A stretch of 64,000 bases of DNA from Fistulifera solaris. Its lineage: Eukaryota. Shown here one piece after another: positions 3,053 to 56,845 of the stretch (positions within the stretch are counted from its first letter, which is position 1; every line of letters starts with the position of its first letter). The position numbers and the translations under genes were made by a program. The notes beneath the pieces are model-generated. The model made no database searches and was not told where the DNA came from. It saw nothing but the letters and a program-made list of their open reading frames with translations. The stretch covers positions 992,001 through 1,056,000 of the forward strand of contig AP026131.1 of NCBI GenBank assembly GCA_030295235.1, written 5' to 3'.

Positions 3053-3124
3053 TATTAATGAACGAAGTCATTTTTTGTTGCAACTTTAGGTCTCTAGCAC
3101 AAAAACTGATGGGTGGGGTGACAC

Positions 3125-4060
3125 GATTCATGACTAAACCAACACTTTGGGTTTGGGTCCATAGTAAAATAAGACAGACAACGTTTTGCAAGACTCTCTT
3201 CGACGTAAATATAATGACGTAAGATGAAAACACTGCAAAAGACTATTTCATTACAACAATGACAATAAAAGCCTAAGAAACTGGGCGATCAAACGACTTG
3301 AAAGTAACATCCGTCGCTCGAAAGAATATTGATTCATGACTGAAATGCAGTCGTAGTCTGCGTAAACTAACACTTTGGGTCTATAGTGAAATAAGGCAGA
3401 CAACGTTTCGCAAGGCTCTTCGACGTAAACATAATGACGTAGGATGAAAACACTGCTATAGAATGTTTCATTGCAACAATGACAATAAAAGCTCAAGAAA
3501 CGGGGCGATCGAACGGCTTGTAGGTAACATCCGTCGCTCGAAAGAATATTGATTCATGACATTTTATTTACTGAAATGCAGTTGTGGTCTGCGTAAACCA
3601 ACACTTTGGGTCCATAGTGAAATAAGACAGACAACGTTTGGCAAGGCTCTTCGACGTAAACATAATGACGTAGGATGAAAACACTGCTATAGAATGTTTC
3701 ATTGCAACAATGACAATAAAAGCTCAAGAAACGGGACGATCGAACGACTTGTACGTAACATCCGTCGCTCGAAAGAATATTGATTCATGACTGAAAAGCA
3801 GTCGTGGTCTGCGTAAACTGACACTTTGGGTCCATAGTGAAATAAGACAGACAACGTTTGGCAAGGCTCTTCGACGTAAACATAATGACGTAGGATGAAA
3901 ACACTGCTATAGAATGTTTCACTGCAACAATGACAATAAAAGCTCAAGAAACTGGGCGATCGAACGACTTGTAGGTAACATCCGTCGCTCGAAAGAATAT
4001 TGGTTCATGACTGAAATGCAGTCGTGGTCTCCGTAAACCAACACTTTGGGCTATAGTAAA
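3125..4060 (+). repeat. Tandem array of ~220-bp units (family A): 4 bodies, 5 terminal boxes
   Basis: The box GATTCATGACTGAAATGCAGTCGTGGTCTGCGTAAACCAACACTTTGGG(T)C(C/T)ATAGT(A/G)AA recurs at about 3125 (partly deleted), 3331, 3551, 3782 and 4002, with near-identical bodies in between. Confidence 0.95.
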
Positions 4061-4333
4061 TACCTTTTTGTTATTTGAATCAGACGGGAATTCTGATTAT
4101 TCTGGACTTTTCAGTTCGATAACAGTGGAATCCGGAATCGCAACGAGCGAAAATGTGGCAAATAGGATCCATACGGAGAGCGCCCCGCATCATCATCGCA
4201 TGCATGCGAGCGCTTTGGACGACAAACGAAGCATAAAAAGAAGAAACGGAGGTGTTATTCATTTGACTTTACTTATCTTCTTTGTCCATTCAACAATCGT
4301 TTATATCATTATAGTTTTATCACAAATAGCGCA

Positions 4334-5431
4334 ATGGGAACATCACAATCGAAGACGCCCACGGTGCCTGGATCGTTCATTCACTCCAAACTACTCGCTA
4401 CGTCCACCACACGTTGCGAGGATACACCACCACCGCCGCCTCCGCCGGGTGAAGCCCCTCCGCCGCCACCACCGAAAGATAGCATTGCCGAAGCAGCGGC
4501 AACTACGACCTTGTACAGCAATCCGGGACCCTACGAAATGGCCGCCATGGATGGCAAACGACTGGTGCAACTTGACACGTTCGACGGTTTCCGATGTGAT
4601 ATCAACAAACAACTCAGCCCATACATGGCTGTCGTACACTCGTTTCTGTTGGGAACGACCTCATTGCCTGATCGCACTTCGACGTATTCGTTTGTGACGC
4701 AAGTGGCGGATGAACAGGGCATTCTCATGACGCGCGTCGATCCGGGACGAAAAAGTGTCGATGGACGGGTGCATCGTGCGGTACTTGGCGGTTTGGCAAT
4801 GGCCAAACTGCAGCTGGGTTTATCTCCGGATGGTCAACAAGATCAGGCGTTGGCGGAACTGGATTTTGGTGGGTTGACTTGGACGGGAAATCTCAAGTAC
4901 GGAAGCATGGCCGGTGCCATTGTGTACGGGTGCAATTATCTACAGAGTATTACGCCTCAATTGCAAATGGGAGGAGAAGGAATGTACATTGCAGCAAATC
5001 AGTCGCTAATAAGTAATTATACGTTGAAATACACGATTCCGGCGTCGACGGGAGAAGAAACATCGGCATTACCGGCGGTTTCGAAGGGACCCGAACGAAA
5101 GGGGTCGTCGATGATGTGTGTGAATTATAATACCGCTCAGAATGCGCTCTCATTGAACTACAAGCGCGTTGTTACTCCCAATCGAGTCACTCTTGGTGCA
5201 GAATTACAGTGCAGTCCTTTGACGCTGGAATCGCAAGTTCTTCTTGGAGCCGAATTTAAACTTCACCGAAGCCGATTTGCCATTTGTGTCGATGGAGGTT
5301 TGCGAACACAAAGTATACTGGAAGCGAAACTGGGCGTCGCTCCAGGAAGTCCTACCTTGAACTTTTCTGCTGATGTCGATCACTTGAATGATGCTATGCG
5401 ATTTGGTTACGGCATCACCATTGAAGGTTAA
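4334..5431 (+). CDS. TOM40: Mitochondrial import channel TOM40
   Basis: Pro-rich N-terminus, NPGPYE, FDGFRCDINKQLSP..VVHSF, YLQSITPQLQMGGE and a C-terminal beta-signal RFGYGITIE. Confidence 0.9.
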   Translation: MGTSQSKTPTVPGSFIHSKLLATSTTRCEDTPPPPPPPGEAPPPPPPKDSIAEAAATTTLYSNPGPYEMAAMDGKRLVQLDTFDGFRCDINKQLSPYMAVVHSFLLGTTSLPDRTSTYSFVTQVADEQGILMTRVDPGRKSVDGRVHRAVLGGLAMAKLQLGLSPDGQQDQALAELDFGGLTWTGNLKYGSMAGAIVYGCNYLQSITPQLQMGGEGMYIAANQSLISNYTLKYTIPASTGEETSALPAVSKGPERKGSSMMCVNYNTAQNALSLNYKRVVTPNRVTLGAELQCSPLTLESQVLLGAEFKLHRSRFAICVDGGLRTQSILEAKLGVAPGSPTLNFSADVDHLNDAMRFGYGITIEG

Positions 5432-6009
5432 GTTTTCGAATAATAAATAAAGTCAATTGTTTTCTCTCCCCCCTGCGCTTGTAGAACTTCCTAGAGACTT
5501 ACTAGCTACATTAGGTTGCTTTGTAATGTCTCTTGTTCTCTCGTTTTGATTTGTCGTACCTAGTGCACTTCATCTGGCTCTGAAACTATTACAGTACGGA
5601 ACATCATTTTTTGTTGTCTAACTAGAGAATGTAATTCAGTTACATCCAACGACATTGCAATGCTCGCTTTGACTAATGCTACACATCATGGTAGACTTCT
5701 TTCAAAGGATGCAGGGGAGTGTTTATCCAGTTTGCAGAGCTACGATTGATCCCTCTCTAGCAACGAAAATGGAAATCGAAAGTCATTAACATTAACGATC
5801 ATGGTCCATCCGTCTCCCGTTCAAAAACGATGCGATTAACCCGTTTACGAATAAGGTTGCAGAAGATACGGACGGAATTTTTCGTTACGTCACTTCAAGA
5901 ACGAGAAAAACGACGGCAAATAAACCATAACACGCTCAAGCACAACAAGCAACACCGCTTCGCTGTTACCTTTGAAGTTTACCTTTTCTCCAATCAACAA
6001 CCACGCAAG

Positions 6010-6838
6010 ATGTTCCGCCTAGCTGTCTTTTCTCCTTCTTAGCGCTTCTTCGCTCGCTTTCGTCCCTCAACAGGGACAATTACACCAAGCGACCGAACTC
6101 GCCGCATTGAACCGTCGCGATGCTCTCGGTTTCGCCTTTTCTGCCATGATTGGGGCTGCGGCGACCTTGCCAACGGGAGCTGAGGCGGCTAGTAATCCCG
6201 CTTTAGAGACATTTAAGGGAGGAAAGAAGACAAAGGGGTCTTACATTCCTGGGAAGGGTCTTCGCGATCAGGCAACGTTCGATGAGCTTGTTGCCGCCTC
6301 AAATCCTGCCTTGGAAACATTTAAAGGAGGGAAGAAGACAAAAGGGGCTTACATCCCCGGAAAAGGTCTCCGTAACGGGCAGACATACGACGAACTTGTT
6401 GCCGTTTCGAACCCGGCTTTGGAGACTTTCAAGGGTCGAAAAGCTACCAAGGGATCTTTTATCCCTGGTAAAGGAATGCGAAACACTGCTGATTTCGACG
6501 AACTCGTTGCCGTTTCGAACCCGGCTTTAGAAACTTTCAAGGGCCGAAAAGCCACAAAAGGGTCTTTTATCCCTGGTAAAGGAATGCGAAACACTGCCGC
6601 TTTTGACGAACTTGTTGCCGCTTCGAACCCGGCTCTAGAGACTTTCAAGGGCCGAAAGGCCACAAAAGGGTCTTTTATCCCTGGAAAGGGAATGCGAAAC
6701 ACTGCCGCTTTTGACGAACTTATTGCTGTTTCGAATCCTGCACTAGAGACATTCAAAGGTGGTAAGAAGACGAAGGGAGCTTACATTCCTGGAAAGGGAC
6801 TCCGTGATCAGTTTTCGTTCGATCAATTGTTTTCATGA
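6010..6838 (+). CDS. Putative thylakoid-lumen protein of six 36-aa tandem repeats (1-nt frameshift near 6030)
   Basis: Removing one T from the TTTT run gives MFRLAVFLLLSASSLA-FVPQQ..LNRRDALGFAFSAMIGAAATLPTGAEA, then 6x (A/V)SNPALETFKG.K.TKG.(Y/F)IPGKG.R....(F/Y)D.L.. Confidence 0.8.
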
Positions 6839-6915
6839 ACATTTGACAGTTTGTACGCATGAATACTTAGTTGCAAATTTACTGTTAGCCTAAAAAAATC
6901 AACATACCTAGCATA

Positions 6916-8370
6916 CTAGCTAAGTCGCTTGATTACAGCGACAAAGAAACCGCCTGAATCATGATCTTGAGGCCACAGCCGTATACACCGTTCCAGGTGC
7001 AACTCGTTCGTCGAAAGAGGGGGCCACATCGAAGAACAGGCTTTCTCCATCTTTGCTTCGATTGCGTCTTCATACGATGCATGCCATCTGAGCTGGACTT
7101 TTTCATCGTCCTCTTGATCCGTATCCCCGATGTAATCAGCAACCTTCCAGCTAGATACTCCAGGGCGACCGGTAAAGCCTTCCATAACAGGCCATTCTAC
7201 TAATTCAAAAGCAGGCTGTCCTTTCTTCCGCTGCGACAGTGCTGCTGTGACCACGGCTTCGTTCTCAATCGGGTTCATACTGCACGTGCTGTAGGTCATC
7301 ACTCCGCCCGCCTTGAGACACTTGAGCGCCCGTGCCAAAATATCCACTTGCAAGCGGTGCAGGGCATTGCTCGTGGCGGGAGTCCAGTTGGTGATGACGT
7401 GAGGGTCTTTCCGGATTGTACCATCCCCGCTACAAGGGACATCGCATATGATGCAGTCATAGAGTTTATCGTCTTGCAATGGTATTGGAAAGTGACTGGC
7501 ATCCAGATTACTAAACTTGATTTTGCTCGAGAACGACATGCCGGATCGGGTCATGGATTCTTGCAAGCTTTCCAGGCGTTGCTTGTTGATATCATTTGCT
7601 TTGACTGACCCTCTCGTCATGATCTCCAAAACCTGCATGGTTTTACTACCGGGAGAGGCGCATAGATCCAAGACCCGCTTTGTCTCGGAAGTCAGCCATC
7701 CTCCGCGATGCAACACCAGTACAGGCAAAATGCTGGCCAGCTCTTGACGAGCCAATTTGCCATTTTGAGAATTTGTCACGAGAAACTCCTTTAACGCCGG
7801 GGAGCTCTGTAACAATGATCCTTTGTTTATATTCGATGATTTGGCTTGATAGATAAGAGGATCAAACGAGCACGGAGCGACCAAATTAGAAAATTGTTCC
7901 TCAATGAGTCTTTGCAGGGTCTCCTTTTTTATCGAAGGGAGGTTTTGTCGGATCCGAAATGTGAGAGGAAGTGGTCGACTCAAACTCCCAATAAAATTCC
8001 GAATCGTATCGGCAGATTGACTAGCTGACAATGCCTGCAGTAGTCTTTCGTTTTCCGGTGATTCGCTTGTCTCCGGTATTGCTACAGAGTCGTCAACCAC
8101 AAGCAGGTCTGTTCCCTTCGTGTCGTTGTTCGAATGTTTCTTTTTCTTACGACGTTTCGCTGCTCGTGATTGACCACAGTTCGTTTTCGCGACATGTTCC
8201 GCGACCGGAATTTCTTTGGCTGTTCCATCCGAGCAAACGCCCAATGGCTGGCGCGCATAATATTCAACGAACAATTGGAAGGCCGCCCCCGATTTGCGAT
8301 GCCACAGTAAATCGGCTTTGCTGTCACTCTTTCGAGCCGATGCTAGTGGATTGTTGGATCGTTTCGGCAT
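6916..8370 (-). CDS. RNA (cytosine-C5)-methyltransferase, NSUN2/Trm4-like
   Basis: Motifs VLDLCASPGSKT, DVPCSGDGT, YSTCSMNPIENEAVV and HDSGGFFVAV. Confidence 0.9.
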   Translation of the reverse strand: MPKRSNNPLASARKSDSKADLLWHRKSGAAFQLFVEYYARQPLGVCSDGTAKEIPVAEHVAKTNCGQSRAAKRRKKKKHSNNDTKGTDLLVVDDSVAIPETSESPENERLLQALSASQSADTIRNFIGSLSRPLPLTFRIRQNLPSIKKETLQRLIEEQFSNLVAPCSFDPLIYQAKSSNINKGSLLQSSPALKEFLVTNSQNGKLARQELASILPVLVLHRGGWLTSETKRVLDLCASPGSKTMQVLEIMTRGSVKANDINKQRLESLQESMTRSGMSFSSKIKFSNLDASHFPIPLQDDKLYDCIICDVPCSGDGTIRKDPHVITNWTPATSNALHRLQVDILARALKCLKAGGVMTYSTCSMNPIENEAVVTAALSQRKKGQPAFELVEWPVMEGFTGRPGVSSWKVADYIGDTDQEDDEKVQLRWHASYEDAIEAKMEKACSSMWPPLSTNELHLERCIRLWPQDHDSGGFFVAVIKRLS

Positions 8371-8756
8371 TGAAGATGCACTTTTAACTCTTTTCTCTAC
8401 GTTTGCCTTTCGATTAGTCTACGTATTCAATATTATGCTTTCGTTGTTTAGGGTGTACCGTACCAGGTAGCATCGTCTTGTTGCTTGATTGTTTGTTTCA
8501 CGTGTCAAAAACCTTGTCCAGAAAGGAATCCCCCTCATTGGGAAACGGGCTCGGGACTGGCCCTCTACTAGCGCACTAAGGCTAGAGAGTTAGAACCAAA
8601 GATTACTCAACGAAGTGTCGGACTGAAATATATGTGAAAAATTGAGATGAAAAATGGAAAATTCAGTCGAATGTCAAGATTACATCCTGACGGTTAGGCA
8701 ATTAATAGGAATAATATTATTTAACACCTTGCAAAAAAAATTTGGATTGTACAGTA

Positions 8757-9980
8757 TCCAGAATGTCTGAATGATCGAAAAAACCGATATCCCAGAATTT
8801 CTGGATCGTTCAAGAAATTCACGAGCATACACAGATTTTCTGTATGAAAGCAAAAACCTACCGAAATGGAGTGAAAGGTCCAAAAATTCTGGATAAGGTG
8901 TTTTGCATCTTTGCATCATAACGAAAGAAGTGCGCATTCCAAATTTTCAGGAAACTGTGTTTTGCATCTTAACGAGGAAAATGCAAATTCCAGATATTCT
9001 GGAATTTGTGTTGTGCTATCATACAGAAATTCTGTGGTAGTCCAGAAATTCTGGACCAATTTTTCGATCCTACCGAAATGCTGAGCAAGTTCCACAATTG
9101 CACTAAACAGTGTTATGGAGCAAAAGGAAAGAAAGTGCACGTTATAAGTTTTCAGGAAACTGTGTTTTGCATCTTAACAAAGGAAAATGCAAATGAAGTT
9201 GTGTTGTGCTATCATACAGAATTCTGTGGTGGTCCAGAAATTCTGGACCAATTTTTCGATCCTACCGAAATGCTGAGCAAGAAAAGGAAAGAAAGTGCAC
9301 GTTACAAGTTTTCAGGAAACTGTGTTTTGCATCTTAACAAGGAAAATGCAAATTCCAGATATTCTGGAATTTGTGTTGTGCTATCATACAGAAATTCTGT
9401 GGTGGTCCAGAATCCAGAAATTCTGGACCAATTTTTCGATCCTACCGAAATGCTGTGGATGTGCCGCTACTTTGCAGCTACAAGGTAAATGGTACATTTT
9501 TTCCGTATACAACAAAGTTTCTCTATGTTCTCAAACCGCAAACAAAACTATTTTGTCCAGAAATGCTACTCGAAACTCGAAACATCGATGATTCAAATCA
9601 GAATTTCAGGTATTTATGTAGTACAGTAGCTGTATGCCCGAAAACATCGATTTCATTATTTCAGATTTTCTTTATGTTTGTTTAGGTCTACCTAAAAACA
9701 CCGATTCCAGATTTTTGGATCGTATTTGGAATTTTAGTTCGATCAAGAACACCCATACCAGAATTTCAGGATTTGATCCAGAATGTCTGTATACCCATAT
9801 ATATTTTTTCCAGAATTTCTGTAGCGATCACAGATTTCAGCTCGACCAAGGACTCCGATGTTTATTTTCACACTTAAACATAATATTTGTATCACTGAAA
9901 ACACCTATTACAGAATTTCTGGAATGTATTCTGAACCTAACAACAACGATCTTCTTCCAGGACTTTTTGGACAGATCCAA
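8757..9980. repeat. Palindrome-rich repeat cluster (family C), copy 1
   Basis: Many TCCAGAA(A/T)TTCTGGA cores and ~190-bp subunits containing TTTTTCGATCCTACCGAAATGCTG. Homologous to the clusters at 41.8-42.8 kb and 51.7-52.3 kb. Boundaries approximate. Confidence 0.9.
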
Positions 9981-10073
9981 AATGTCTTTATCTCTAACAA
10001 GAATCTAACAAAAAGATTTATTGGATTTGGACCAATAAAGGTCGGGAGACACCGTTCACTGCGCCTTTTACCG

Positions 10074-11119
10074 TCACGTCTTTTTCACTACACCACCATG
10101 ATCAACCATTTGTTGAAACATGTCCCGCAACGTGTCATCCAATGGGCGGTACTCCATTCCCAATATTTGTTTCGATTTGGTGTTGTCGACGTTTCGCGGA
10201 ATATCGACCATATTCTCGACAAATCTGCGTTGTACCCCAAAGAAGGGTGCCACGAGCCAAAACAATGATTTGGGTACGACGGATTGAGGAATGGGATAAT
10301 CGGGAAACATTCGGCAAAGACGATTGGCGATTTGCACCAGATCCGTCAATTCATCACCCGACAACAAGAAGCGACCGTTCGCCGGCGAGGAATAGGCCGC
10401 GAGAATGTGCGCGCGCGCCACATCCCGGACATCCACCACACCCATTCCCACACGGGGAATGCGAGACACGCTCGTCAGTTGTTGCAACAAGCGAAAACAT
10501 TCATTCGTTTCGTGATATTTCAATCCAGGTCCCATCACTACGGTGGGATTCATCGTTACCATCGACCATTGTGTTTGTGATCCGGCTAGGACCCACGCCG
10601 CTTGCTCCGCCAATGTCTTGGACAAGGAATACGGCTGATATTGCAACGTAGCGGCGCGATTCCAGTTTGTTTCATCGACGACGTGATTGCTGGTATAACC
10701 TTCCCAATTGTCGGCACACATGGCGGCGGCGGAACTGGTGAGTACCACGCGTCGCACCGAAGGCGTTTGACACGCTTGTTGCAACACAATTTCGGTTCCT
10801 TGTACGGCCGGGTCAATGAGATCTCGTTTCGCGTCTTTGACTTGTAGGATGAAAGGCGATGCGGTATGAAATACAATCGAACAGTCGTGCATGGCTTCAG
10901 CAAAACTCCCTTTTGTTGCAAGTCAGCCTCAAAGAATCGAATCGTTCCTTTCAATTCATCCACGACATCTTGAAGGTACCGAAAACGCTCTGGTTTGGAA
11001 ATATCACGAACGGCCGCATGAACTGTGATGCCTTGCTGCACCAGTTCGCGGATCAGAACACCGGCAATATATCCCGTCGCGCCCGTCACGAGAACGGGGG
11101 AAGAAGAAAGGCCTGTCAT
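10074..11119 (-). CDS. NAD(P)-dependent extended SDR, dihydroflavonol-reductase/aldehyde-reductase-like (frameshift near 10910)
   Basis: VLVTGATGYIA, VFHTASPF, RVVLTSS, YSLSK (YxxxK) and VDVRDVARAH. Confidence 0.88.
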
Positions 11120-11348
11120 GATTGTTCGGCGGTTTCTCGCTGCTTGCATCCATTTCGTTACATGTCGACAACTCGCAGACTGTTGCATGTGAAAGAAGGG
11201 TTTATCATTTAAGAAATGAGAAGCAAGGGAAGCCTATTCGGGTCAATGCTAGTCGCATTTTTCTTCGAAATATAGATGATGCGGTCGCCGTTTTTTTTTC
11301 CGCCGCAATAAGTTTATCGTCTGTGCGTGCGCCCCTCATTTTTCTTGT

Positions 11349-11838
11349 TCGTGACCGAAAATGCAGTTAAGTCATGAAAAAGGTAATCTTCACTTTGGGC
11401 TATAGTAAATATAAGAACGACCACCATCGGCAAGACTATTCGGCGGAGATGCGCAAGGCAAATGATGCTAAAGATCATTGCATCCTATAGAAAATTATAG
11501 TTTACCAATCTAGACAAGAGAACAAATAGAAGGCGTGATTCGGCAATCATGCATCTCGAATATCATTCGTCGTGGCGAAAAACGGATAACACTTTGGGTG
11601 TATAGTAAATACTAACCCAAACGATCTGCTAGACTTCACGACATCATAATAGCGAAACTTGGGCTACAAAGGTATAGTGGAAGCGGTATAACTGTGATAA
11701 AACCAGTAAAAAGCTTGCCAAGCAAGTAACTGACGCAAAATAGGTAGTAATGGAAATCTCGAATTATCATGATGATTCATGACTGGGTGCAGTCGTGGTA
11801 AAGTTGACAGTCCCGGTACACTTTGGTTTTATAGTGAG
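11349..11838 (+). repeat. Diverged family-A array (3 boxes, 2 bodies)
   Basis: CACTTTGGGCTATAGTAAA at 11391, ACACTTTGGGTGTATAGTAAA at about 11589, and GATTCATGACTGGGTGCAGTCGTGG..ACACTTTGGTTTTATAGTGA at about 11774-11838. Confidence 0.8.
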
Positions 11839-11948
11839 CTGAACATTGAAAGCCTCGCGGCATCGCATTGCGTTGTTTCAGAGTAGGATGGGTTTCGCAT
11901 CATTTATTTATCAAAAAGGATTGCGAAACAACAATAGGATCTGACAAG

Positions 11949-13667
11949 ATGGCAACCTCTACCGCCGCACGTCTCTTTTGGAGCTACCAAGCTCCTTTGG
12001 CGGGCGCATTGGTGGTTCACAGAGCGTTTCAGGATGTGACGACGGCATGCGAGAAAGCTCCGAATACGAAGCTACAATCGAGGGTACGTTTGTTGGTGTT
12101 TTGTAGGAGCTATCAACAAAAAATGAATCACTCACTTTGTCTTCTGACTATCTGTGTATACTTGTGCTTATTTTTTGTGTCGATTCAACAGATGACATCG
12201 ATTGGACATTTCTCGGTCGTTTCCGAAACGACACACAATCCCAGCATTGTGACATTTGTCATGGCGTTGACGGGTCAGACACCTTTGACCGCGCAGGAAT
12301 TTTCTCGCTTGTGGCGCGAACGCGGTATGGAAGAACGCCATCCTCGGTTTCATAAGAAAATCGCGAATGGCTCGAACTTCATCCCCACGGACGACCCGGT
12401 GGAAGATCATCTGACGGAAACGACGTTTCCCGTCGTGCCCCGCGCGGATGTCAAAGCGCGGATTCAGCAGTTGCAAATGACGCCATGGGATCTTTCGGAA
12501 AAATTGTGGCATATGTGGATTGCCCCGTGGGGGAAATTGGGAGCTTCCGGGCTCATCGATCCAGAGGAGACAATATCCGATACTGAGAAGAAAGGAGAGA
12601 GTTTGTTGTTCTTTCGAGCGCATCATGCCCTGGGTGATGGGGCATCCATGACGGCGGCTTTCTTGGATGTACTGGATGAAGCAGCAGAAATACAACAAGA
12701 AATCATCGACTTTCTTCGAAAGCTCAGAAAACGCGGCGAGAAAACGAAAGGGTTTTGGCAGGCACTAGCAAAAAGATGAAACAAATTCTCGCGTTTCTAT
12801 TCGGAAGTCTCCGAGCTCTCGTCTATCAAACTTCTTTATTTTGGCACATGCTTTGGGAAACGGATTCCTGGTCACAAATTCGGAAATTGACACGCACCGA
12901 AGAGCAAGCTCAGCGAACCGTTTCTTGGTCGAAGGCAGCCCCGTTGGAGCAAGTAAAGTGGGTGGCCCAGCAGCTGAGTGTGGAAGGCAAAAGATTACCG
13001 TGAATGACATATTTTGCGCTTGTGTTTCGGTGGCCATCGGAAAACAAGTGTCGGAACATCGAAGCAAGATCCAGGCAACTTCGTCTGGCAGACATTCTGC
13101 GAAAATTGCGAAACAGGAGCATTTCAATATTGCATTCCCGGTACACCTGAAAGGCGGAGTGGTGCTACCAGGAGAATCGGTGGGGAATAATCTAGGAGCT
13201 TTTGTTGTCCGGGTTCCGGGTGAAAGAGACGATCCGCAATCACACGAACGACTACTCCAGGTACATGATACCTTGGCGACTGCGAAAAGCATGCCAACTG
13301 CGATTCTCAGTCACATTCTCGCAAAGGCTTTTCGTACGCGTCCGCGATTCTACCCACCCGCTTCGTTGGTTGGATGTATGCTTGTTCTAATGGCGGATCC
13401 ATCGCGGTGATTAGCAACAACAGAGGACTCCCCAAACCGGTCCATCTTGGTGGTCGACAAGTAGAAGCTATTTATGGTTTTGTACCACTCCCACCAGGTA
13501 TTCCTATCGGCGTTGTTGTGATGAGCTATGCCGGTACTGTTAATTTGACGATAACTGCAGAACCCTGGGCCGTACCGGATGCCGATCAATTCCTCGTTTG
13601 GGTGCTGGAGGAGTATAACAACCTTTTAAACGCCGCACGTCAAGAGAGGAGTTATAAGAAATTGTGA
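11949..13667 (+). CDS. Wax ester synthase/diacylglycerol acyltransferase (WS/DGAT); intron 12084-12191; about 3 single-base frameshifts
   Basis: HPRF, LWHMWI, catalytic HHALGDG (HHxxxDG), ITVNDIF, GNNLG and C-terminal GIPIGVVVMSYAG. Confidence 0.85.
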
Positions 13668-13721
13668 AAAAGTCTGAATACAAGGGAGGGATTAAGTTGA
13701 TACTGCTAATGTAACGTTAGT

Positions 13722-14396: not shown

Positions 14397-14425
14397 AGGC
14401 AAGTATACTTCCTCACCCGATGGAG

Positions 14426-20497: not shown

Positions 20498-21222
20498 TCC
20501 GGGTACCCCCTCTGTCGATAAATTTCCTTACGAGAGCTACGTGCGATTCACGTAGACATTTTCAAGCGTTGCACCTTTCACGCTTTGACGTATGGAAGTC
20601 AATCATTCAATGTTCAATACAGCCTATTGGCACGTACTATGCATGTCGGAGAATGCAACGATGGCAATGGTGCACAATAGACCTGGAAAATGGTGTGATC
20701 CAAATTACACAATATCCGGGTATCCCCTAAGTCGATAAATTTCTTTACGAGAGCTACGTGATATGCACGTAGACATTTTCAAGCGTTGCACCTTTCACGC
20801 TTTCACGTATGGAAGTCAATCATTCAATGTTCAATACAGCCTATTGGCACGTACTATGCATGTCGGAGAATGCAACGATGGCAATGGTGCACAATAGACC
20901 TGGAAAATGGTGTGATCCAAATTACACAATATCCGGGTATCCCCTAAGTCGATAAATTTCTTTACGAGAGCTACGTGATATGCACGTAGACATTTTCAAG
21001 CGTTGCACCTTTCACGCTTTGACGTATGGAAGTCAGTCATTCAATGTTCAATACAGCCTATTGGCACGTACTATGCATGTCGGAGAATGCAACGATGGCA
21101 ATGGTGCACAATAGACCTGGAAAATGGTGTGATCCAAATTACACAATATCCGGGTATCCCCTAAGTCGATAAATTTCCCCACGAGAGCTACGTGCAATTC
21201 ACGTAGACATTTTCAAGCGTTG
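20498..21222. repeat. Tandem array of 217-bp units (family B), ~3.3 copies
   Basis: GTCGATAAATTT recurs at 20514, 20731, 20948 and 21165. Units are nearly identical and each has the hairpin CTACGTG-N5-CACGTAG. Confidence 0.95.
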
Positions 21223-29189: not shown

Positions 29190-29470
29190 TGACTATAGTA
29201 TAAAGTGTATATCCACTTTTGCGCGACTGGATTTCAGTCACGAGACGCTATGTGGTGTGGTTGTGCGATTGTTCGCTTGAGTTTTATAAACACTTGTAGA
29301 CCTTTCCAAACGTAGTATAATATTGCAAAGGTACGTTCTACAAATTTTACATTATATGTGGTGATATCATAAAGGAACCAAGTCGAAAATTCTCGGAACT
29401 GCTCACATCTTCATTTACTATAGTCCCAAAGTGTTAGTTTACAGCAGACGCGACTGGACTTCAGTCACAG
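29190..29470 (-). repeat. Family-A unit (2 boxes, ~225-bp spacing), reverse orientation
   Basis: ACTATAGTATAAAGTGT..CGACTGGATTTCAGTCAC at about 29192-29241 and TTTACTATAGTCCCAAAGTGT..CGACTGGACTTCAGTCAC at about 29414-29468. Confidence 0.8.
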
Positions 29471-30182
29471 AGAATAGGTTGTGCGGCTAATCGTTGCTCG
29501 CATGAGCCATCGTCGCCCGTTGCTTCAATTGCTGTAGAGAGACTAAACGCAGACGTTAACAAACAGGTTAGACGAGTTCGCGTTTAGCCTTTAGCAATGA
29601 CTCTTCAATTCATTCACGATGACACGCAAGGCGAAAGAGAACGCGAACGCCGATGAGTACATTTTGAGTCACTGTAACTTTGGAAGGAGAAACCCTTTGA
29701 TGTATGTAGTTTTTTATTATGGAGTTACATACCGCTAAGCATTTACCACCCCTAACTAACTAATACCGCATCAATGGTATCGCGAACTCCGCCTGCCAAG
29801 ATGACAACCTCGTGTCAAACACACACTGCAAAGATTTCACACCGATGCCCTCAAATAGCCGGTGACTGACACCTCATTCCCACTTTTGGCATTGGTGGAA
29901 CAAAAGGGAAGTGAAGCAACTGTTCCATACACTGGCGAAGCTTCCCTATTCCCAGGTTCGCACAGTAGAAAACTCAAACGGGCATAAGGATAGCAGCCAT
30001 TTGTTTGTGACGTTTGACACCCTTTCGTCTCAAAAAGTGAGACAACAGTATCTTATAAATCCCATCAATCAAAAACAAACACAAACGAAAGTGTTTAGTC
30101 AAGCAATCCCCGCTAGAGTCTCCAGGGGCGAAGAGAGGAATACTTCAAGAAAGATCGGTCGTTCGAAAGAAAGGATATCGAA

Positions 30183-39502: not shown

Positions 39503-39862
39503 CTCGTTCTTAGTCTCTCACCTACTACTTATACTAGAAAGTGTTTCTATGCGGAGGTTTTGATGGACTTCAATGGTTGTGATGGGTTTGATGGCTGGAA
39601 TAAAAACACAAAAACTGCGTTTATAAAAAGTGTTGCAATCTTAGCGTTACTGTTTTTCCTCGCCATTGTGTAGCACCGGTACTTGTAGTACTTTGTATTT
39701 TTTTTTTCGCCAACAAACGAAAACAGACTACTCCGTAAATATTTAATTCCTAATTTTCCTAAAATGCGGATGCATTTTTGACACTCAAGTGAATTTTCCA
39801 CTGGTTTTCTCTTTTGTCACATTTCTTTCAGAAACTTCGATTTCTGAATCACTGTACCACAG

Positions 39863-40115
39863 TTAGTAGTAAAGCGACAAACCTGCTCCGGTTTCCCAGT
39901 GCGGAGGATTGCGCTGTGGCGCGCCATCTCTCGGATTTCGCAATAGCATGCTCACCGATCGAACCAACGAGAGACTCAGACGAGATCGGATGAAGCCACA
40001 AATTTCAGAGTACGGTCTCTTCCATTTCTTTTGCAGCTTTCTTGCAAGTTGGCGTGAGGCAGCCACGGCTTGTTTACCCATAAGCCCGTCGACAGAAAAA
40101 ACAAGAGGCGTAACC
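39863..40115 (-). mobile_element. 5'-truncated remnant of a non-LTR retrotransposon (C-terminus of the restriction-like endonuclease, CRE-like)
   Basis: TPLVFSVDGLMGKQA..RQLARKLQKKWKRPYSEICGFIRSRLSLSLVRS matches the C-terminal pattern of RLE-type retroelement ORFs. Recognised by motif memory only. Confidence 0.65.
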
Positions 40116-40330
40116 TTACGGAGTATCAAAGTGTTGCCCGTTTTCAACACGACTGGATTCAGTCATGAGACGAAAGTCTGCCCGAATTGCTCGTATTGTT
40201 TTAGGCTTCGGAAAGAAGCGCCAAATGTTGACATCTCTACTTGACTATTGGCTAGTATCAATGCACCGCCGAATCATCATTGATATGTCGAATGGCCCTT
40301 TAGCCGTTCAATTAGACTTATCACGGAAAA
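40116..40330 (-). repeat. Diverged family-A unit, reverse orientation
   Basis: CAAAGTGTTG..CACGACTGGATTCAGTCATGA at 40127-40168, a conserved GTCGAA at about 40287 and a degenerate second box near 40320. Confidence 0.65.
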
Positions 40331-41816: not shown

Positions 41817-42795
41817 TCCAGAATTTCTGTAGCAAAGGATTGCACACTGTCTCCAGAATTTCTGGAATTAACACCGTCCATAATTAACACCAGAATCTCT
41901 GTATGATCGCAATCACCGATTCCAGACTTTCTGGAACAGCCAAAGAATTTCTGTATGATCGCGATCACCGATTCCAGAATTTCTGGAACAGGCACAGAAT
42001 TTCTTTATGATCGCAGTCGCCTACCGAAATGGAGTGAAAGGTCCAAAAATTCTGGATACGGTCTGTTGGATCATAACGAAAGAAAGTGTATTTTTCAGAA
42101 ATTCAGGAAACTGTGTTTTAATAGTCTATCATAACGAAAAAGTGCGAATTCCAGAAACTCTGGAAAATGTGTTATGCATCATAAACTTACAGAAATTCTG
42201 TGGTAGTCCAGAAATTCTGGACCAGTTTTTTCGATCCTACCGAAATGCTGAGCAAGTTCCAAAATTTCATAAAACACTGTTATGGAGCATAACGAAAGAA
42301 AGTGCGTGTTCCACATTTTCTTGAAACTGTGTTTTGCATCTTAACGAAGCAAAATGCAAATTCTAAAAATTCTGGAAGAGTGTTAAGCATCACACAGAAA
42401 TCCTGTGGTGGTCCAGAAATTCTTGACCAGTTTTTCGATTCTACCGAAATGCTGTGCATGTTCCAGAAATTCTGGAGATGATGTTACAATCAAAAGAAAA
42501 GAATGTGCGCGTTCCAGAAATTCAGGAAACAATGTTCTGGATCTTAACGAAGGAAAATGCAAATTCCAGAAATTCTGGAAAGTGTGCTTTGCATCATTTG
42601 CATCCTACCAAAATGCTTAGCAAGTTGTTCCAGAATTTCATGAAACCGTGTTACTGTATGGAGAATAACGAAGGAAAGTAATTTCCTCTTGCCACCGAAA
42701 TGCGTGCATGAGCCGCTACTTTGCCGCTCCTTGGTAAACTACAGAATTTCTGTATGTTTGCAAACCTTGAGCAACATTTTTCCAGAAAATCTGGA
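41817..42795. repeat. Palindrome-rich repeat cluster (family C), copy 2
   Basis: Same cores as 8.76-9.98 kb. The 39-bp landmark CCTACCGAAATGGAGTGAAAGGTCCAAAAATTCTGGATA is identical at 8857 and 42020. Confidence 0.9.
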
Positions 42796-44464: not shown

Positions 44465-44817
44465 TTGCTCGTATTAAATCATATTGTCGAATAATAGATT
44501 GTAAGGAACGGTAAAAACTTTCACGCACAAGCACCTAGGTCCTTTCACGGGTCTGCGGTGTGAACAATTACATTGTGTGATGACGACTACAACGTGACTA
44601 ACCCATGACCCATCATTAGCTATAAATAACTGTTGTCCTATAGTGACTCAGTACAAACATCGCTATACAATGATCAGCGTGACCGCAACGACAAGAAAAA
44701 TAAGCCACGAAAGAGAATGACCGTTTGCAAAAGCACGCAAGGGCATTGCATCGATCATACATCGCCGCGACCATCCTTGTCTTATTCTGTTATTTGTTTA
44801 TTTATCCAGGATTTATC

Positions 44818-46842: not shown

Positions 46843-46964
46843 ATCTGACTCTCTATTTCTTTAAAAAGTAATTAAAAACTGCCAATACAAAAAGATGCAT
46901 GAAAGTCTTCGCTTCGCTTTTTTTTGCAGCGTGTTTCTGAAAAAATCGCACTAAGGCGAAAAAG

Positions 46965-47717: not shown

Positions 47718-48180
47718 GGTCCTCTGAGTTTACGGAAACTTGCAAGAACCCATTGTCAACTCTAATGACTTTCTCGCTCGTCGCCGACCTACTTGTTTGT
47801 GTTTCTTCTTTCTCACAGAAAAAGTGAAGTGTTTGCATTGTTGTCGAAGAAATTCTGGAAGTAAAAAGGCTTGCTTCCAGAACTTTAGCTTTCGAATGAT
47901 CAAGTGTCGTACAAAGTACCACTGAGTACCGCTTCTGAAACCACGATTCAAGACCGATCAGTGTGAGTCATGAGGAACATGACGAAGTTGACTGTGGAAC
48001 GTTAAGTACTTTCGAAATTGCCGCCGGTCGCGTTTTTCCCCCGAACGGCGACGACGACATCAACGACAACAACAATAATTGATGCACAGCAAAGCAGGAG
48101 ATAAAGAACAATCACCATTGTCTTTGGACTTGAGAGCTAGAGCATGACTTTGCGTGCTGTTACAGATCGTATTAGTTGTC

Positions 48181-50472: not shown

Positions 50473-50531
50473 AACAGTTAAAATAATATAGTTGTCGTAT
50501 CTATCGTGTGAATAATGATTCTATTCGTTCT

Positions 50532-51505
50532 CTAAATACTTCGTGTCGCCGCAATCGCCGCACCAACTTTTGACCGGGTGGGCTTCCCCAGAAGAGCGCA
50601 AATGAATTCGGCAGCATCCACTAACTTCATGAGATCGATTCCCGTTTCGAGGCCCATCCCGTGGAGCATGTACAGGACATCCTCGGTGGCGACATTCCCC
50701 GAGGCTCCTTTCGCGTAAGGACAACCACCCAAACCGGCGACCGACGAATCGATGGTAGTGATCCCCTGCTCCAGGGAAACCAGGATGTTGACGAGTCCTT
50801 GACCGTATGTATCGTGAAAGTGAACGGCAATCTGCTTCTTTTCCTCGTCGGAGAATTCTTGAAGCAATCGCTTGGTCTCGTACGGTGTTCCCACCCCAAT
50901 GGTATCACCCAGAGAGACTTGGCAACATCCCATTTCGAACAGTTTCCGAGTCACGGTTGCTACTTGTGCCGAGGAAATGGCTCCCTCATACGGACAAGCA
51001 ATGGCACACGAAACATACCCCCGAACGGGTAATTGTTTTTGTGCGGCCATCTCTAGCACGGGCCGGAATCGTTCCAACGATTCGGTAATACTGCAATTGA
51101 TATTTTTCTGCGAAAACGTTTCACTCGCGGCAGCAAAATGGCAATTTCGTTCACGCGTGATGGCGCTTGTTCCAGGCCTCGAAGATTCGGCACCAAAGCC
51201 ACCAAGGTCGTCGTCCGCGGCAAGTTTTCGAGTTCTTGAAATACTTGTTCGGTGTCGGCCATTTGCGGAACCCATTTGGGTGAAACAAAACTCCCAGCTT
51301 CAATGTACGAACATCCCGCGGATGCCAGCATGCGTATGAACTGTGCTCGATCTTGCACGGACAGTGTCACCAATTCGTTCTGCAAACCATCGCGGGGACC
51401 GACTTCGACCATGCGGACGGCGGGTGTCGTCAGCCGTCTTCTCACGAAATGGCCCGTTCGAAGGCGTTTTTGGAGTTGAGATGTAAAGGGAGTGATTCCT
51501 CTCAT
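50532..51505 (-). CDS. HMGCL: Hydroxymethylglutaryl-CoA lyase, mitochondrial (frameshift near 51135)
   Basis: VEVGPRDGLQNE, SFVSPKWVPQMAD, SLGDTIGVGTP, HFHDTYG and GLGGCPYAKGASGNVATED. Confidence 0.95.
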
Positions 51506-51709
51506 CGATGGATAATGATGAATGTTTTTCTATTCAACTTATGCGTGTTCTCACTCGATCGAGAAAGAGTGTCACTGCGTTTCTGTTCGTTTTTGTGTTT
51601 GCGCACTTTTTTGCGCGGACGAGGAAAAGTTCGTTAAAAACTATACTCTTTTCTAAGAAGTAGTCTCGAGTCTCTCTACGACTTCACGGTAAGGTTACTG
51701 TACTCCGAG

Positions 51710-52300
51710 AAGTTCTGGAACGCGCACTTTCTTTCGTCGTTATGATCAAATAATAGACTAGACCCAACAGTTTCCTGAATTTCTGGAACGCGCATTTTCA
51801 TTTGTAATACCCCAAAACAACGTGTCCAGAATTTCTGGAACGTGCACAGCATTTCGGTAGGATCGAAAAATCTGGTCCAGATTTTCCGGACCACCACAGA
51901 ATTTCTGTATGATAAGAATAATAGCTTATCCAGAATTTCTAGGTGCTGTCTCTTTCGTTATGATCAAATCACAGTGTCCAGAATTTCTGCTCTCTTTCGT
52001 TATAGTAATCCAAAACACCTTGTCCAGAATTTCTGGAACGTTCACAGCATCTCGGTAGGATCGAAAAATCCGGTCCAGAATTTCTGGACCATTACAGAAT
52101 TTCTGTATGATCAGAATAATAACTTATCCAGAATTTCTGGAACGTGCACTTTCTTTCGTCGTTATGATCAAATAACAGTTTCCTGAATTTCTGGAACGCG
52201 CATTTTCATTTCGGTAGGATCGAAAAATCTGGTCCAGAATTTCTGGACCAGCACAGAATTTCTGTATGATCAAGAATAATCACTTATCCAGAATTTCTGG
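51710..52300 (-). repeat. Palindrome-rich repeat cluster (family C), copy 3, inverted
   Basis: CATTTCGGTAGGATCGAAAAATCTGGTCCAGAATTTCTGGACC occurs 3 times (with variants). It is the reverse complement of the subunits at 9.0-9.45 kb. Confidence 0.9.
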
Positions 52301-52395
52301 ATGTGCGGTTTTTTGTTATATATTGCGATCTTTTTTCAAAAAAAATCATCATCATCGATGTAGATCGCAAACAGAACAAGTCTATCTTTTCCAGA

Positions 52396-53990
52396 ATGCA
52401 TGGTTCACACCATTCTAAGTCATTCATTCTTTCACTACTTGTCTTTGTTTTACGGAATGCGGACGCCCAAACCTGTAGCGCACTCGACGGTTATGTGCGG
52501 GTAGACAATCAACCGTTGCGCCCCAAGGATTTGCCGGCCGTGCAACTCTTCCAAGATTGGCAGAACTCGACCATCTCGATTCACAACTCTTTGCTTGTCA
52601 ATGTATCCTCGGGTTCGATTCGACAGGCAGGTTATAGCAATTATACGTCACAAGTCGAACTACTGTCCAAGATTGTCACCGCCGAAGAAGTGAGTCGGAT
52701 GCTGCAATTATTGAACAGTCCTCAAACGTTTTTGGATCAAGATCCGGATACAGTGGATGGATTTTCGACACAAGAATTCTTTCTCGATAATGATAGTCTT
52801 CGGAATGGCGAATCCGGAAAGCCGGGATTTGAATCGTCCGAGCAAGCGGAACAACGCCGCGAACTGCGACATGCTTTGCAAAGTATCGTACAACCCATAC
52901 TGGAAGAACGCATTACACCGTACGTCAATCAACGCTTTGCAGCTTGTCAAGGACGATGTACACCCTGCTACTCGCTCCTTCGTCGTTACTTGTACGGTGA
53001 GCGCCAATCGCATGCTCCGCATCGGGACGGTCATTCCTTTGTGACCGTGGTCGTGAGTTTGAGTGAGTACGGCACCGATTATCTTGGAGGGCTTTACGTT
53101 GCCTCGGAAACGAGTCATCCGTATTACTTGAAATTGAACCAAGGAGATGCGGCGGTCCATCAGAGTGATCTTTTGCACGGTGTCAAAGTCTACCCCATCG
53201 AAACGGAGGATGGTTTACGCGCGACCCGTTGGTCTTGGATTTTGTGGTTCCGCGATTCGGAACAATGTGAGGATGAGTCGCATCTGTGGTTCAAAGATTG
53301 TGCCGAAGAGGGGAATCCGACCTGTCAAATGATGCATGCCACCAAGGTATCGAGTATTCCGGGCATTTCTTCCGAAGAAGCCATGAAAGAAGTGGTCCTC
53401 TGGAATGAGAAAGCGGCAGAAATGGGTCACGCGACGGCTTGTGTCAAGTTGGCTCGTGCATTGTTGGGAAAATTACCGTCTCATTTGAAAAGAATCGAAA
53501 CGAGGCCAGGAAATTGTTCTTGAGAGCCATAGAATCGTCGAATGACCCCGATGCACAATACGGCATGGCCACCCTGTATTTGGAAGACGCCGGTGCGAAC
53601 GTAATACTGGGACGCCCGTACGACGATCTGGTCAAGAAGGCTGTAGCCCATTTAGAAGCGTCCGCGCTCGGAGGTCATCCATTTGCCATGTTCAATCTAG
53701 GCATGGTGCACATGATGGGATATGGGACGAAAATCGACCATGCATTGGCCGGAGAATGGTTCGAGGCATCGGGACTACCGGAAGGTTTGGCGGCTCGATC
53801 GATGCACTATTCGTCCATTGGGGAGCCCGAACAAGCGGTCGAGTTTCAACGAAGAGCTCAGTCCTTGGGTTTTGGAGCCCCCTGGCGCGTTCTGGCTCGC
53901 GAAAGTACGGGTTATGGCGGTGCCGGTGGCATCGATTTCAATTTGCCATGGCCTCCCAATGAATCGAATCGGGTTCCTCCGAAATGGTAA
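52396..53990 (+). CDS. Secretory 2OG-Fe(II) oxygenase with C-terminal Sel1-like repeats (frameshift near 53490)
   Basis: Signal peptide, LRRY, HxD (PHRD), YLGGL, LLHGV, RWSWILWF, then DAQYGMATLY and AMFNLGMVHMMGYG..AGEWF. Confidence 0.8.
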
Positions 53991-54789
53991 TTGATTTTTG
54001 AATAAGTGGTATTACTAGTTGTATGTAATTTTGTTAAACCGACTATTTACACTAGTGCGACTTGCAAACTAACGAATGAATAGTCTACTTCAAAATGAAT
54101 AATTATCATAGCTATAATAAAGTCAGTTGGTTAGGGATAGAGCTCAGGAATTGCTTCGAAGAAAGACGGTTGACTGACGCGCGTATACCGGTACTTTTCT
54201 CGTTATAATGACGGTTTTTTTTATCCTCATCCTTGTTGGACCCATACGAAATTTGTTTCGCTTTCACCGCACAGGCACAGCGCATGTCAAACGGCGGATC
54301 GTTGAGAGCAAAGCAACACAGCAACAGGTTCTAAAAACAGAATAAAAACCGTTCAATAAACGTATTTCCTTCATTCATACCCGGTATCGAATAATAAGGG
54401 TTTTATGCTAAGAGGTTAGCTCTGTGTGGTATTCCGGTTCATACCTGCTCAAAATGGTAAGCGATTAAGAGATTCAAGCAGGAGTCCGTTCCTTGAGGCG
54501 GGGGTGTGTTCGTTCGATCGCAGTGTTTTTAGCAACAGTTGTCTCACGCCGTTTTGTGGTTTGATGAACTATTCTGAATAACTATTTTAATTGCAGTTCG
54601 GTCTCGCGTTCAGCGGGAGCCAAAAAGGGTGAAGAGTATGGTCTACGCGTTCAAAAGAGTGCCCAACTTCGGAAATCAACCAAATTTGTTGTTCCGAAGG
54701 TTACGCACGCGGAAGACCCCGTCGAGAAAACGAATTCGAAACGAAATAGGAGGAGAAGGCGACCGAAGAAACCACAGGCGGAGGGACCC

Positions 54790-56262
54790 ATGTATCCGAA
54801 AATTTTGTCGAAGAAACCACACGATGCTCCGATGACCAAGCGTGATTTGTATTTTTGTCTTCGGTGCGGCATGGTTGTAGTAGGAAAGCAAGGCATGGAT
54901 AGTGCCGTAGGCCGGGTGGTTCTGGTGAACTGGGAGAATGAGACCGTCTTTGATAAATTTGTCAAAGTCCCGCTCCATGTAGCCGATTATCGCACCTCAG
55001 AGACCGGAATCACCGAGAAGGATCTCTCGTCATCAGGTGCTGTAACATTTGATCAAGCTCGAAAAGAAGTGGGCAGACTCATAAAAGGGAAAATTCTGAT
55101 AGGACATGGACTGGAGGTTGACTTGGCTTCGCTTGGATTGACTCATCCTTCGAGTGATACCCGCGACACGGCAACGTATACTGCTTATATGAAGGAAGTT
55201 ACGGACGTCAAATCTCCCATGCTTATGCCACAAGAATTGTCAACTCTCAGTAAAAAAGAACTAGGTCGAGATGTTGGGAAGGGCCCTGTTTCTCAGGCAA
55301 CAGTTTGCTTGGAACTCTACAAGGCAGCTCGGGCCAGCTGGGAGACGGAACTAATCCACTTGGTGCAACAGAAGGAAAGACAGCGACAGATGGTCATGTC
55401 TATGCGGGCGAGTGGCCAAGGAAATACGCGAATCAATGGAATTTCTGTACCGCTTTTTGCAATTCGAGAGAATGATGCATTACTTCAGCAAGGATATCGA
55501 CAGGGTGGACCTGCATTTCCTTGTACTTCTTCGGTCGATTCCGGTTCTCAGAGTGGGTCGTACTATTATGACGACGAGCTGACCTCTGAGACAAGTTATT
55601 TTAGCTTTGAAACGGACAACTTGTCAACGGTGACACCGAATCGTGCTCCAGCGCTCTCTGACTTTAGTGCGTCGTCGCAAGGTCGGGCGTCTGTTCTGCC
55701 CCAACCGGCTCAATGTGACGACGTAAATTACACAGAAAGGCGTTTCACAGATGCCTTCTCATTGACTCAGAAACCCGGGGTGAGCGAATCAGACAATAAC
55801 CGGACGAGCTCAGTGCCGAATAAATTTTTAGGACCATGCGATACAACCGATATTTGGGGTGTTTCGAAACCTCTGGGCTATATAGCCACTCCATCGCAAG
55901 ACGCGCAAATTCCGACCGATTTGAATATTGATATAACGAAACCTCCATGCTCCGATGACGAAGAACTTTTGATGCACCTACCATCAGCGCTTCTTGCCGA
56001 TCTAGACCAGGATATAAATTGCACGTTACCCCCCAAATCCACAGCTGAGAAGGAGACCACGGAGAGCTCCACTCTATGGTACCGAACACGGAGGAAGCAG
56101 AAGAGTTTGTCGGATTTTGGGTCGCGACATACTGGTGAAACTGGCAAGCCGATCAGTCGCTTCATAAGAACTGCATCTTTAGACAACATCATTATAAAGG
56201 AGGAAAAGAAAACGCCAGGGGTCTGGTTTCGCTCCTTGAGAATGCTCCATGCTACCAGGTAA
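54790..56262 (+). CDS. REX4-like DEDDh exonuclease-domain protein, catalytically degenerate; 5' end uncertain
   Basis: GRVVLVNW, FDKFVK, VADYRT..TGIT, KGKILIGHGLEVDL and TRDTA, followed by a long low-complexity tail. Confidence 0.75.
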   Translation: MYPKILSKKPHDAPMTKRDLYFCLRCGMVVVGKQGMDSAVGRVVLVNWENETVFDKFVKVPLHVADYRTSETGITEKDLSSSGAVTFDQARKEVGRLIKGKILIGHGLEVDLASLGLTHPSSDTRDTATYTAYMKEVTDVKSPMLMPQELSTLSKKELGRDVGKGPVSQATVCLELYKAARASWETELIHLVQQKERQRQMVMSMRASGQGNTRINGISVPLFAIRENDALLQQGYRQGGPAFPCTSSVDSGSQSGSYYYDDELTSETSYFSFETDNLSTVTPNRAPALSDFSASSQGRASVLPQPAQCDDVNYTERRFTDAFSLTQKPGVSESDNNRTSSVPNKFLGPCDTTDIWGVSKPLGYIATPSQDAQIPTDLNIDITKPPCSDDEELLMHLPSALLADLDQDINCTLPPKSTAEKETTESSTLWYRTRRKQKSLSDFGSRHTGETGKPISRFIRTASLDNIIIKEEKKTPGVWFRSLRMLHATR

Positions 56263-56569
56263 CCCTTCCAGCGTCTCGTCTGTCTTTCTTCGAAGACCGG
56301 TCCGGTGTTTCGTTATAAAGTCTGATTTCGTATCAACTTGTTGATTGTACTAATTTTGAAAGGAAGCAGAGCCGAAGTCAAAAGGTTTTGCATTTTTAGA
56401 TACTTGAACATTAAAGTACGTCATAGTGATGCTGGACTTGGTTGCAGAATAATAATCCAAAGTAATTAGTATTGACTAGGATAGAGAAAAGAAGAGCGTT
56501 GTTTTTAAAATTGCAAAAAAACACAGCACTTCAGAAATTCCGTCTGCCTGAAAATAAGTTATGTGGTAT

Positions 56570-56845
56570 CTACTATAGTTCAAAGTGTAGCACACCTTTT
56601 CCTCGACTGCATTTCAGTCATGAATTTATCAAAATTCTTTTGAGTGACATTGTCACCTCTAGAATCTTTTGTTCGTCAAATTCTTTGAGATGCACTTGTC
56701 GTTACTGCAATGTAACAGTCTTTAGAAGCGTTTGCATTGCACGCCTTGATATTTTGAAGTCGAAAAGCCTGCAAAACGTTGTTTTCCGTATTTACTATGC
56801 ATGGGTTCAATGAGAAACGAGATACGATTGATTGCATTTCAGTCA
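56570..56845 (-). repeat. Family-A unit (2 boxes, ~222-bp spacing), reverse orientation
   Basis: TACTATAGTTCAAAGTGT..CGACTGCATTTCAGTCATGAAT at 56571-56625 and degenerate TTTACTAT..GATTGCATTTCAGTCA at about 56791-56845. Confidence 0.75.

Follow-up and report, generated by a model that had tools for sequence, protein, structure and literature searches.

Family A, the repeat that we describe here, lies in a 64,000-nucleotide stretch of Fistulifera solaris DNA (assembly GCA_030295235.1, contig AP026131.1, positions 992,001 to 1,056,000), which we call the window and by which all positions are numbered. It is apparently an undescribed repeat family with a constrained box: a unit of ~220 bp has been copied to several intergenic sites, and the ~53-bp box that recurs from unit to unit is under constraint relative to the bodies between the boxes. 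We tentatively favour the reading that family A is an old, non-coding and non-autonomous mobile element of the rolling-circle type, which depends on an HUH transposase, and that the box is a putative site of this enzyme. The reading that comes next, in which the box is a protein-binding module of the host, is possible though less likely.

To detect family A, we built a profile model from 10 boxes and searched the whole window. The 10 boxes were re-detected at E≤3.2e-11 and the same profile found three partial boxes (at 11569, E 7.7e-5; at 3131, E 5.5e-4; at 56846, E 0.17), which results in 13 boxes over five loci; the next match has an E of 0.85. When each locus was left out of the profile in turn, all five were regained (E 6e-13 to 1.5e-6), and the best match outside the loci had an E of 0.93. 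Because the profile gives nothing else below E 0.85 and every omitted locus is regained, we conclude that family A is real. A covariance model of the box found no further locus in the window. The loci occur in both orientations and always between genes, with about one locus per 13 kb. This bears out an earlier note on this DNA, including its estimate of a box spacing of about 200-230 bp: the eight box-to-box intervals are 222, 231, 220, 219, 200, 229, 225 and 222 bp. The loci and their parts are as follows.

3126..4057, plus strand: locus L1, four units of 219-231 bp that are 81-97% alike, with five boxes, between an LRR gene and TOM40
3126..3165, plus strand: L1 box 1, broken by a 22-bp deletion that takes out the stem, with a 6-bp duplication
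3335..3387, plus strand: L1 box 2, four core words complete
3555..3618, plus strand: L1 box 3, stem with an 11-bp insertion
3786..3838, plus strand: L1 box 4, four core words complete
4006..4057, plus strand: L1 box 5, the last box, four core words complete
4058..4096, plus strand: tail after the last L1 box, common to L5, with a 5-bp inverted repeat at its end
11350..11835, plus strand: locus L2, three boxes and two mutually unalignable bodies, in the spacer of divergent genes
29192..29510, minus strand: locus L3, intact boxes at 29468-29417 and 29242-29192, one body, and a body remnant of at least 38 bp before the first box
40124..40167, minus strand: L4 box with stem, spacer and ACACTTTG, interrupted at TA by an inserted element
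39727..39730, minus strand: remainder of the L4 box beyond the insert, TAGT
39731..40123, no strand assigned: L4 insert of 393 bp, flanked by TA on either side and ending in terminal inverted repeats of 8 bp, similar to a MITE (miniature transposable element with inverted repeats) and lying outside family A
56572..56846, minus strand: locus L5, decayed first box at 56846-56794, one body, and intact last box at 56622-56572
56531..56571, minus strand: tail after the last L5 box, common to L1

Along its own strand, the box consists of a stem of eight pairs (8-bp arms) around a loop of 4-5 nt, a spacer of 16-17 bp, the word CACTTT, 4-5 bp and the word ATAGT, whose end lies ~30 nt after that of the stem. 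The stem is imperfect, with 91% of its cells paired. In 8 of 10 boxes T and G face each other at one position of the stem, and this pair can therefore form on one strand only; at another, the two boxes of L3 have G-C in place of the A-T of most others, which counts as a single event. The spacer keeps its length of 16-17 bp in 10 of 11 boxes and comprises at least three unrelated sequences. The strict pattern ACACTTTG-N2-3-TATAGT, by which the box had first been described, proved too narrow, with only 2 exact matches in the window. The stem had been claimed to be retained; both of its arms are indeed kept in 8 of the 13 boxes, whereas all four core words are present in only 7 (7 of the 11 scored; the unscored first boxes of L1 and L5 are broken). 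Altogether, 6 of the 13 boxes are broken, decaying or interrupted, including boxes 1 and 2 of L2, whose stems are broken (box 3 is intact). We thus conclude that single copies are dispensable.

When comparing units, we find that box identity is 0.57-0.78 compared to 0.44-0.47 for shuffled sequences, in all ten pairs. The distal body is within 0.05 of the shuffled identity in nine of the ten pairs, with L1-L5 as the sole exception. In 3 of 10 pairs, the first 45 bp after the box (0.67-0.78) are kept better than the distal body. The bodies are 150-174 bp long, and their heavy divergence was confirmed in part: likeness is at chance level between the two L2 bodies (z 0.5) and for the L4 stretch, but reaches 81-97% among the L1 units and 65-67% between L1 and L5 (z 10-12). 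It is unlikely that the boxes were retained by chance among neutrally decayed copies, as at 30% divergence ~3% of copies would retain 19 of the 21 core sites.

The two ends of the loci behave differently. The right end is fixed: at L1, L2, L3 and L4, likeness to inner bodies ends no more than ~5 bp from the last ATAGT, and at L5 there is a weak 26-bp extension of it (4/200 shuffles). The tail that follows the last box of L1 and L5 is common to both (0/200 shuffles) and separate from the body. The left end is ragged, with the body remnant of at least 38 bp at L3 (0/200) and none at L1 and L5; a ghost body upstream of L2 is doubtful (1/200 among 30 tests, 3/200 in a second test). The last box has both stem arms at all five loci, whereas the first box is broken at three of the four loci with several boxes. 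That each locus starts and ends with a box therefore holds approximately, given the L3 remnant and the L1/L5 tail. L4 has one box and no detectable body; an additional, upstream box was not detected there by the profile, leave-one-out and covariance models. Furthermore, over 55 bp the first box of L3 and an L1 box are 87% alike although the L3 body is barely alignable, and boxes and bodies therefore have different histories; the L5 body is closer to L1. All three indels of at least 6 bp in L1 fall into boxes and none into bodies (post hoc p ~0.025).

Beyond the window, we compared contigs from read runs to positions 1700-12800, which contain L1 and L2, and genome-wide statements rest on this comparison. 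X1 possibly has the same source as the window and is thus not independent; X2 is from another study. The summed depth of the two main L1 box bins is 549-764 compared to about 20-40 in the flanking genes (X1, X2), where summed contig depth is not a copy number and is read only as 'many loci'. In addition, 29 and 36 contigs cease matching right after the stem, and some contigs have two boxes with unaligned sequence between them. Judged from these contigs, the box is probably present at many loci. Two positions of the L1 body are found in only 3 and 2 X1 contigs (depth 86 and 41; single contigs have ~15-17), and there are therefore few close relatives of the L1 body. X3 resembles RNA, with a spliced joint and a poly-A end at 3062, and hardly covers the units, which is no evidence either way; X6, with a small share of words, includes one 222-bp contig on an L1 unit that was not used as evidence. 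A pattern scan gave 63 metagenome and 34 viral loci, which we treat as chance and not as evidence on distribution: their best covariance score is 22 bits compared to at least 50 bits for 11 boxes of the window, 10 of which are part of the model, and none has the diatom family-B palindrome twice.

The rolling-circle reading fits because of the fixed right end, the ragged left end, the multimers, the asymmetric stem, the indels in the boxes and the mosaicism of boxes and bodies. Every mechanistic step is one that we infer. An HUH-type enzyme, putatively encoded outside the window, would copy the element through single-stranded DNA; it would recognise the box on one single strand and nick or terminate there. 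Where copying halted at a box, the insert would have the order box-body-box, its right end fixed and its left end ragged. Adjacent boxes could then undergo unequal crossing-over, which would give rise to local arrays like that of L1, and boxes and bodies could become mixed by exchange between loci. If only copies with a good box were re-copied, at a low rate, the box would be conserved and the other copies would decay. The IS608 and REP transposases read DNA via such strand-specific imperfect hairpins. No target duplication was seen beside the boundaries at the four loci with usable flanks, where left boundaries are undefined; the longest words shared between flanks are 5-6 bp and do not lie at both boundaries, and the flank taken for L4 was a wrong one.

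Several results weigh against a rolling-circle element. No transposase family was found among the 36 window open reading frames (ORFs) scanned, and family A lacks the termini that define Helitron1 and HINE; it has one and the same kind of box at both ends, unlike the end boxes of Helitrons. Covariation in the stem is not significant (70/500 shuffles), and for a second hairpin that would include the spacer the result is borderline (28-93/500). Among the X1 contigs no young dispersed sibling of the L1 body was found, and as X1 and X2 exceed the depth of the flanks to a similar degree, there is no sign of a recent burst. L2 is spanned and occupied in X2 (record 15, 10617-12209), and the right end of L1 is occupied as well, where record 11 begins inside the last box. 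No empty site was found among the 15 joints listed of 180, none of which skips L1 or L2. The proposal of a rolling-circle nick or recombination site thus stands in part: constraint, the asymmetric stem, the right end and the multimers support it, but an empty site, a sibling and an enzyme were not found.

If family A is mobile, it would be a small family of the rolling-circle type, unusual in that every unit has one box at both ends, from a group in which no Replitrons were found, and would predict an undescribed enzyme. A long shot in the same direction is that family A is the eukaryotic counterpart of bacterial REP/BIME, i.e. a population of strand-specific hairpin boxes throughout the genome that are copied at a low rate by an undescribed or domesticated HUH-type nuclease, that act as nick or replication-initiation landmarks every 10-15 kb and that are related to the proposed diatom autonomously replicating sequence (ARS) motifs. 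Bacterial REP/BIME/REPIN are imperfect hairpins in small intergenic clusters, which persist for long at a low copying rate and depend on RAYT. Family A resembles them as hairpins in small intergenic clusters, a likeness of description, and we know of no RAYT transposase in diatoms.

We compared family A to known elements. Helitron1 is defined by 5'-TC and 3'-CTRR termini and a hairpin 10-12 nt from the 3' end (PMC4067079, PMC5148889). It was rejected, as the arrays of family A end at ATAGT, no 5' end is shared among the five upstream flanks, and the stem lies too far from the end. Helitron2/HINE have subterminal inverted repeats of 12-15 bp, at a distance of 2-4 nt to the 5' end and of 38-60 bp to the 3' end (PMC4067079, PMC5148889); inspection of the array ends revealed none, only a short TCGA-centred likeness. 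The Helitron2/HINE palindrome, 8-35 bp from a T-rich 3' end, fits the L1/L5 tail, where T-rich DNA comes after the small inverted repeat at its end; it was not seen as a common feature of L2-L4. Like HINE/DINE-1 (non-autonomous Helentrons) and Helitron2, family A is non-coding and dispersed, with a short hairpin near one end, internal tandem repeats and, at the loci with usable flanks, apparently no target duplication; it differs by having neither a defined 5' end nor TT flanks and by repeating the box in every unit. By analogy, family A would work most like dispersed arrays derived from HINE/Helitron2. We do not class it as a member because the terminal definitions fail. DNA/Helitron is an annotated class in Phaeodactylum (PMC10421102); no RepHel partner was found among the 36 window ORFs.

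The Helitron-associated satellites of Crassostrea gigas likewise form short arrays scattered over the genome, whose families share conserved boxes of 42-53 bp and have divergent interiors, but there the boxes flank the array and left differs from right, whereas the family A box is inside each monomer (PMC8268682). For Replitrons, none are reported from diatoms in the part of PMC10288648 considered here; the direct repeat is ~53 bp in family A compared to ~6 bp, and no HUQ/Y1 Rep partner was found among the 36 window ORFs scanned. A MITE was rejected, as the ends of family A are direct repeats; it is the separate 393-bp L4 insert that has the MITE feature. Furthermore, a short interspersed nuclear element derived from a tRNA was rejected: no tRNA was called, the box strand has no A-run of at least 6, and on inspection the TTCGA patch lacks the flanks of the B-box consensus. 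A terminal-repeat retrotransposon in miniature was dropped on inspection. In the literature, we found no description of the family A box (preprint supplements and the journal version were outside the search) and no paper that pairs Fistulifera with either box word; the 11 supplementary files of PMC5935921 have 0 matches to the box words. The undescribed repeated elements between LPAAT genes (preprint Fig. S16) could be family A.

The box might instead be a host protein-binding module on double-stranded DNA, a dyad with a second site 16-17 bp off, which selection would maintain, and neighbouring boxes would be separated by one nucleosome. The role of the module would lie in the initiation of replication, in chromatin organisation or in transcription, and the unit would have spread long ago and now be immobile. 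This possible but less probable reading accounts for the absence of young siblings. It also agrees with a spacer of fixed length and free sequence (16-17 bp in 10/11 boxes), with the body length of 150-174 bp, with a nearly private L1 body next to a widely shared box, with the occupation of both tested sites in X2, and with the density of one locus per ~13 kb. The last box aims at a start codon 114-293 bp away at four of the five loci (225 bp for L4, counted without its insert). However, the orientation of boxes to genes is uninformative: two loci lie in divergent spacers, and of the three in tandem spacers two point toward a start and one toward a gene end. The centromeric repeats of Meloidogyne are a precedent, being divergent monomers in short arrays marked by a conserved dyad box, there of 19 bp (PMC8097292). 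They are bound by CenH3 in a holocentric animal, whereas diatom chromosomes are treated as having one centromere (10.1101/2021.11.10.468027). Against a host module stand the 6 of 13 broken boxes, which include the sole L4 box, and the large indels, which are enriched and not depleted in boxes. Nucleosome phasing, an alternative raised before, gains no support from dinucleotide periodicity, as none of 10-11 bp was seen (176/500 shuffles), although the bodies have a suitable length. If the box is host-bound, it would be a rare sequence-defined chromosomal landmark in diatoms, useful for the design of episomes and artificial chromosomes.

A preprint on F. solaris describes three dispersed centromere/ARS motifs, with functional data termed preliminary (bioRxiv 10.1101/2021.11.10.468027). 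These motifs are from the same genus, are dispersed at intervals along chromosomes and have CAGTCG and a preceding AAAT in common with family A, but their matches in the window are separate sequences at 8.64 and 39.7-40.0 kb. The box is none of motifs 1, 2 or 3, as the best motif matches in the window fall outside boxes. Some likeness speaks for a host module: motif 1 fits the boxes better than shuffles (3/500), although not significantly once the shared hexamer is removed (43/500). In addition, both stem arms recur about a copy of motif 3 (8639-8679), at 8621-8679, in the same orientation and ~40 bp apart. AAATNCAGTCG occurs five times in the window, in four boxes and at position 8659, and GACTGAAAT six times, in five boxes and at position 8621. 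We observed that the bin 8378-8748 has a depth of 1594 in X1 and 21 in X2, with an X3 contig on it, and is possibly a repeat amplified in one strain.

The other motif matches lie inside the L4 insert: motif 2 at 39923-39972 with 8 mismatches of 50 (shuffles have 14 or more), and a stretch like motifs 1 and 3 at 39738-39831. The motif-3 site at 8639-8679 is 72% like this 39.7-kb stretch without having the same terminal repeats. As the published motifs at 39.7 kb are located within a MITE-like insert, they are weaker as host signals. This suggests, from one copy only, that they may belong to a mariner-type MITE, so that the published 'ARS/centromere' motifs may be pieces of a transposon and not replication signals. 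For family A, the insert cuts the L4 box at TA and the box continues with TAGT beyond it; family A therefore predates the insert and survives disruption.

It is unlikely that family A is an ordinary dispersed short-array satellite without function, in which a fragile, recombination-prone box is homogenised by gene conversion and arrays form via unequal crossing-over. The disagreeing kinships of box and body, the concentration of indels in boxes and the presence of similar intergenic arrays in the window (one of 217-bp units at 20.5-21.2 kb and, at three loci, a family of 52-54 bp) would be expected from such a satellite. However, gene conversion would carry the spacer along, whereas at least three unrelated spacers of equal length lie between the conserved words, and neutral decay leaves too few copies with 19 of the 21 core sites.

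Still less likely, the unit is a small-RNA cassette, i.e. a promoter of the small nuclear RNA type (upstream element and TATA-like word) or a novel self-cleaving RNA that releases monomers of ~220 nt. Its size (200-231 bp) and its dimer-to-multimer tandem layout are those of non-LTR retrozymes (150-450 bp; 220-240 bp in coral; PMC7229834), which are also intergenic and low in GC (PMC7229834; 10.64898/2026.07.22.740005). Moreover, the U-G pair is in keeping with RNA, conservation is better in the 45 bp that directly follow the box in the three pairs mentioned above, and a U6-like promoter in Cuscuta has divergent downstream RNAs (10.1101/2022.07.06.498962). Unlike retrozymes, family A has no hammerhead core in any box on either strand, and the window has no Rfam match at gathering score, ribozymes included, but only chance matches at L1, L3 and L5 (E 3.6-4.5). 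As circles the units do not fold stably, with z below -2 in 1 of 12 folds; no body follows the last box, which is the best-kept, and C/D boxes and Pol III terminators gave no consistent signal in family A units. A tyrosine-recombinase site, as once proposed, and a Crypton were rejected, since the box has 8-bp arms, a 4-5 bp loop and the end word ATAGT, whereas CryptonS have 11-13 bp arms, a 6-8 bp spacer and terminal direct repeats of 5-6 bp, mostly TATGG (PMC3212892).

Lastly, the window contains further repeats and genes. A second dispersed family consists of palindromic units of 52-54 bp in higher-order repeats of 160-216 bp (8760-9950, 41890-42740 and 51700-52300). It is abundant in X1 and X2, where some contigs link it to family A boxes, and its palindrome resembles the L1/L5 tail. 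The intergenic tandem array at 20498-21222 has 3.3 copies of a 217-bp unit that are 96% alike; its period is near that of family A, and family A models do not match it. Genes are dense in this diatom DNA. TOM40 of Fistulifera solaris shares 97% identity with the ORF at 4334-5431, and one window-encoded protein belongs to the same 90% cluster. Over 1700-12800, the contigs of both X1 and X2 fall into two sets, as would be expected in an allopolyploid: one is nearly identical to the window, and the other differs from it by ~8-12% in genes and often ceases aligning in intergenic DNA. A 71-bp GT-AG intron (2248-2318) joins two LRR reading frames, with the poly-A end at 3062 lying ~64 bp before L1. 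The ORF at 6146-6838 encodes about six repeats of 36 amino acids and has a weak match to DUF7795.

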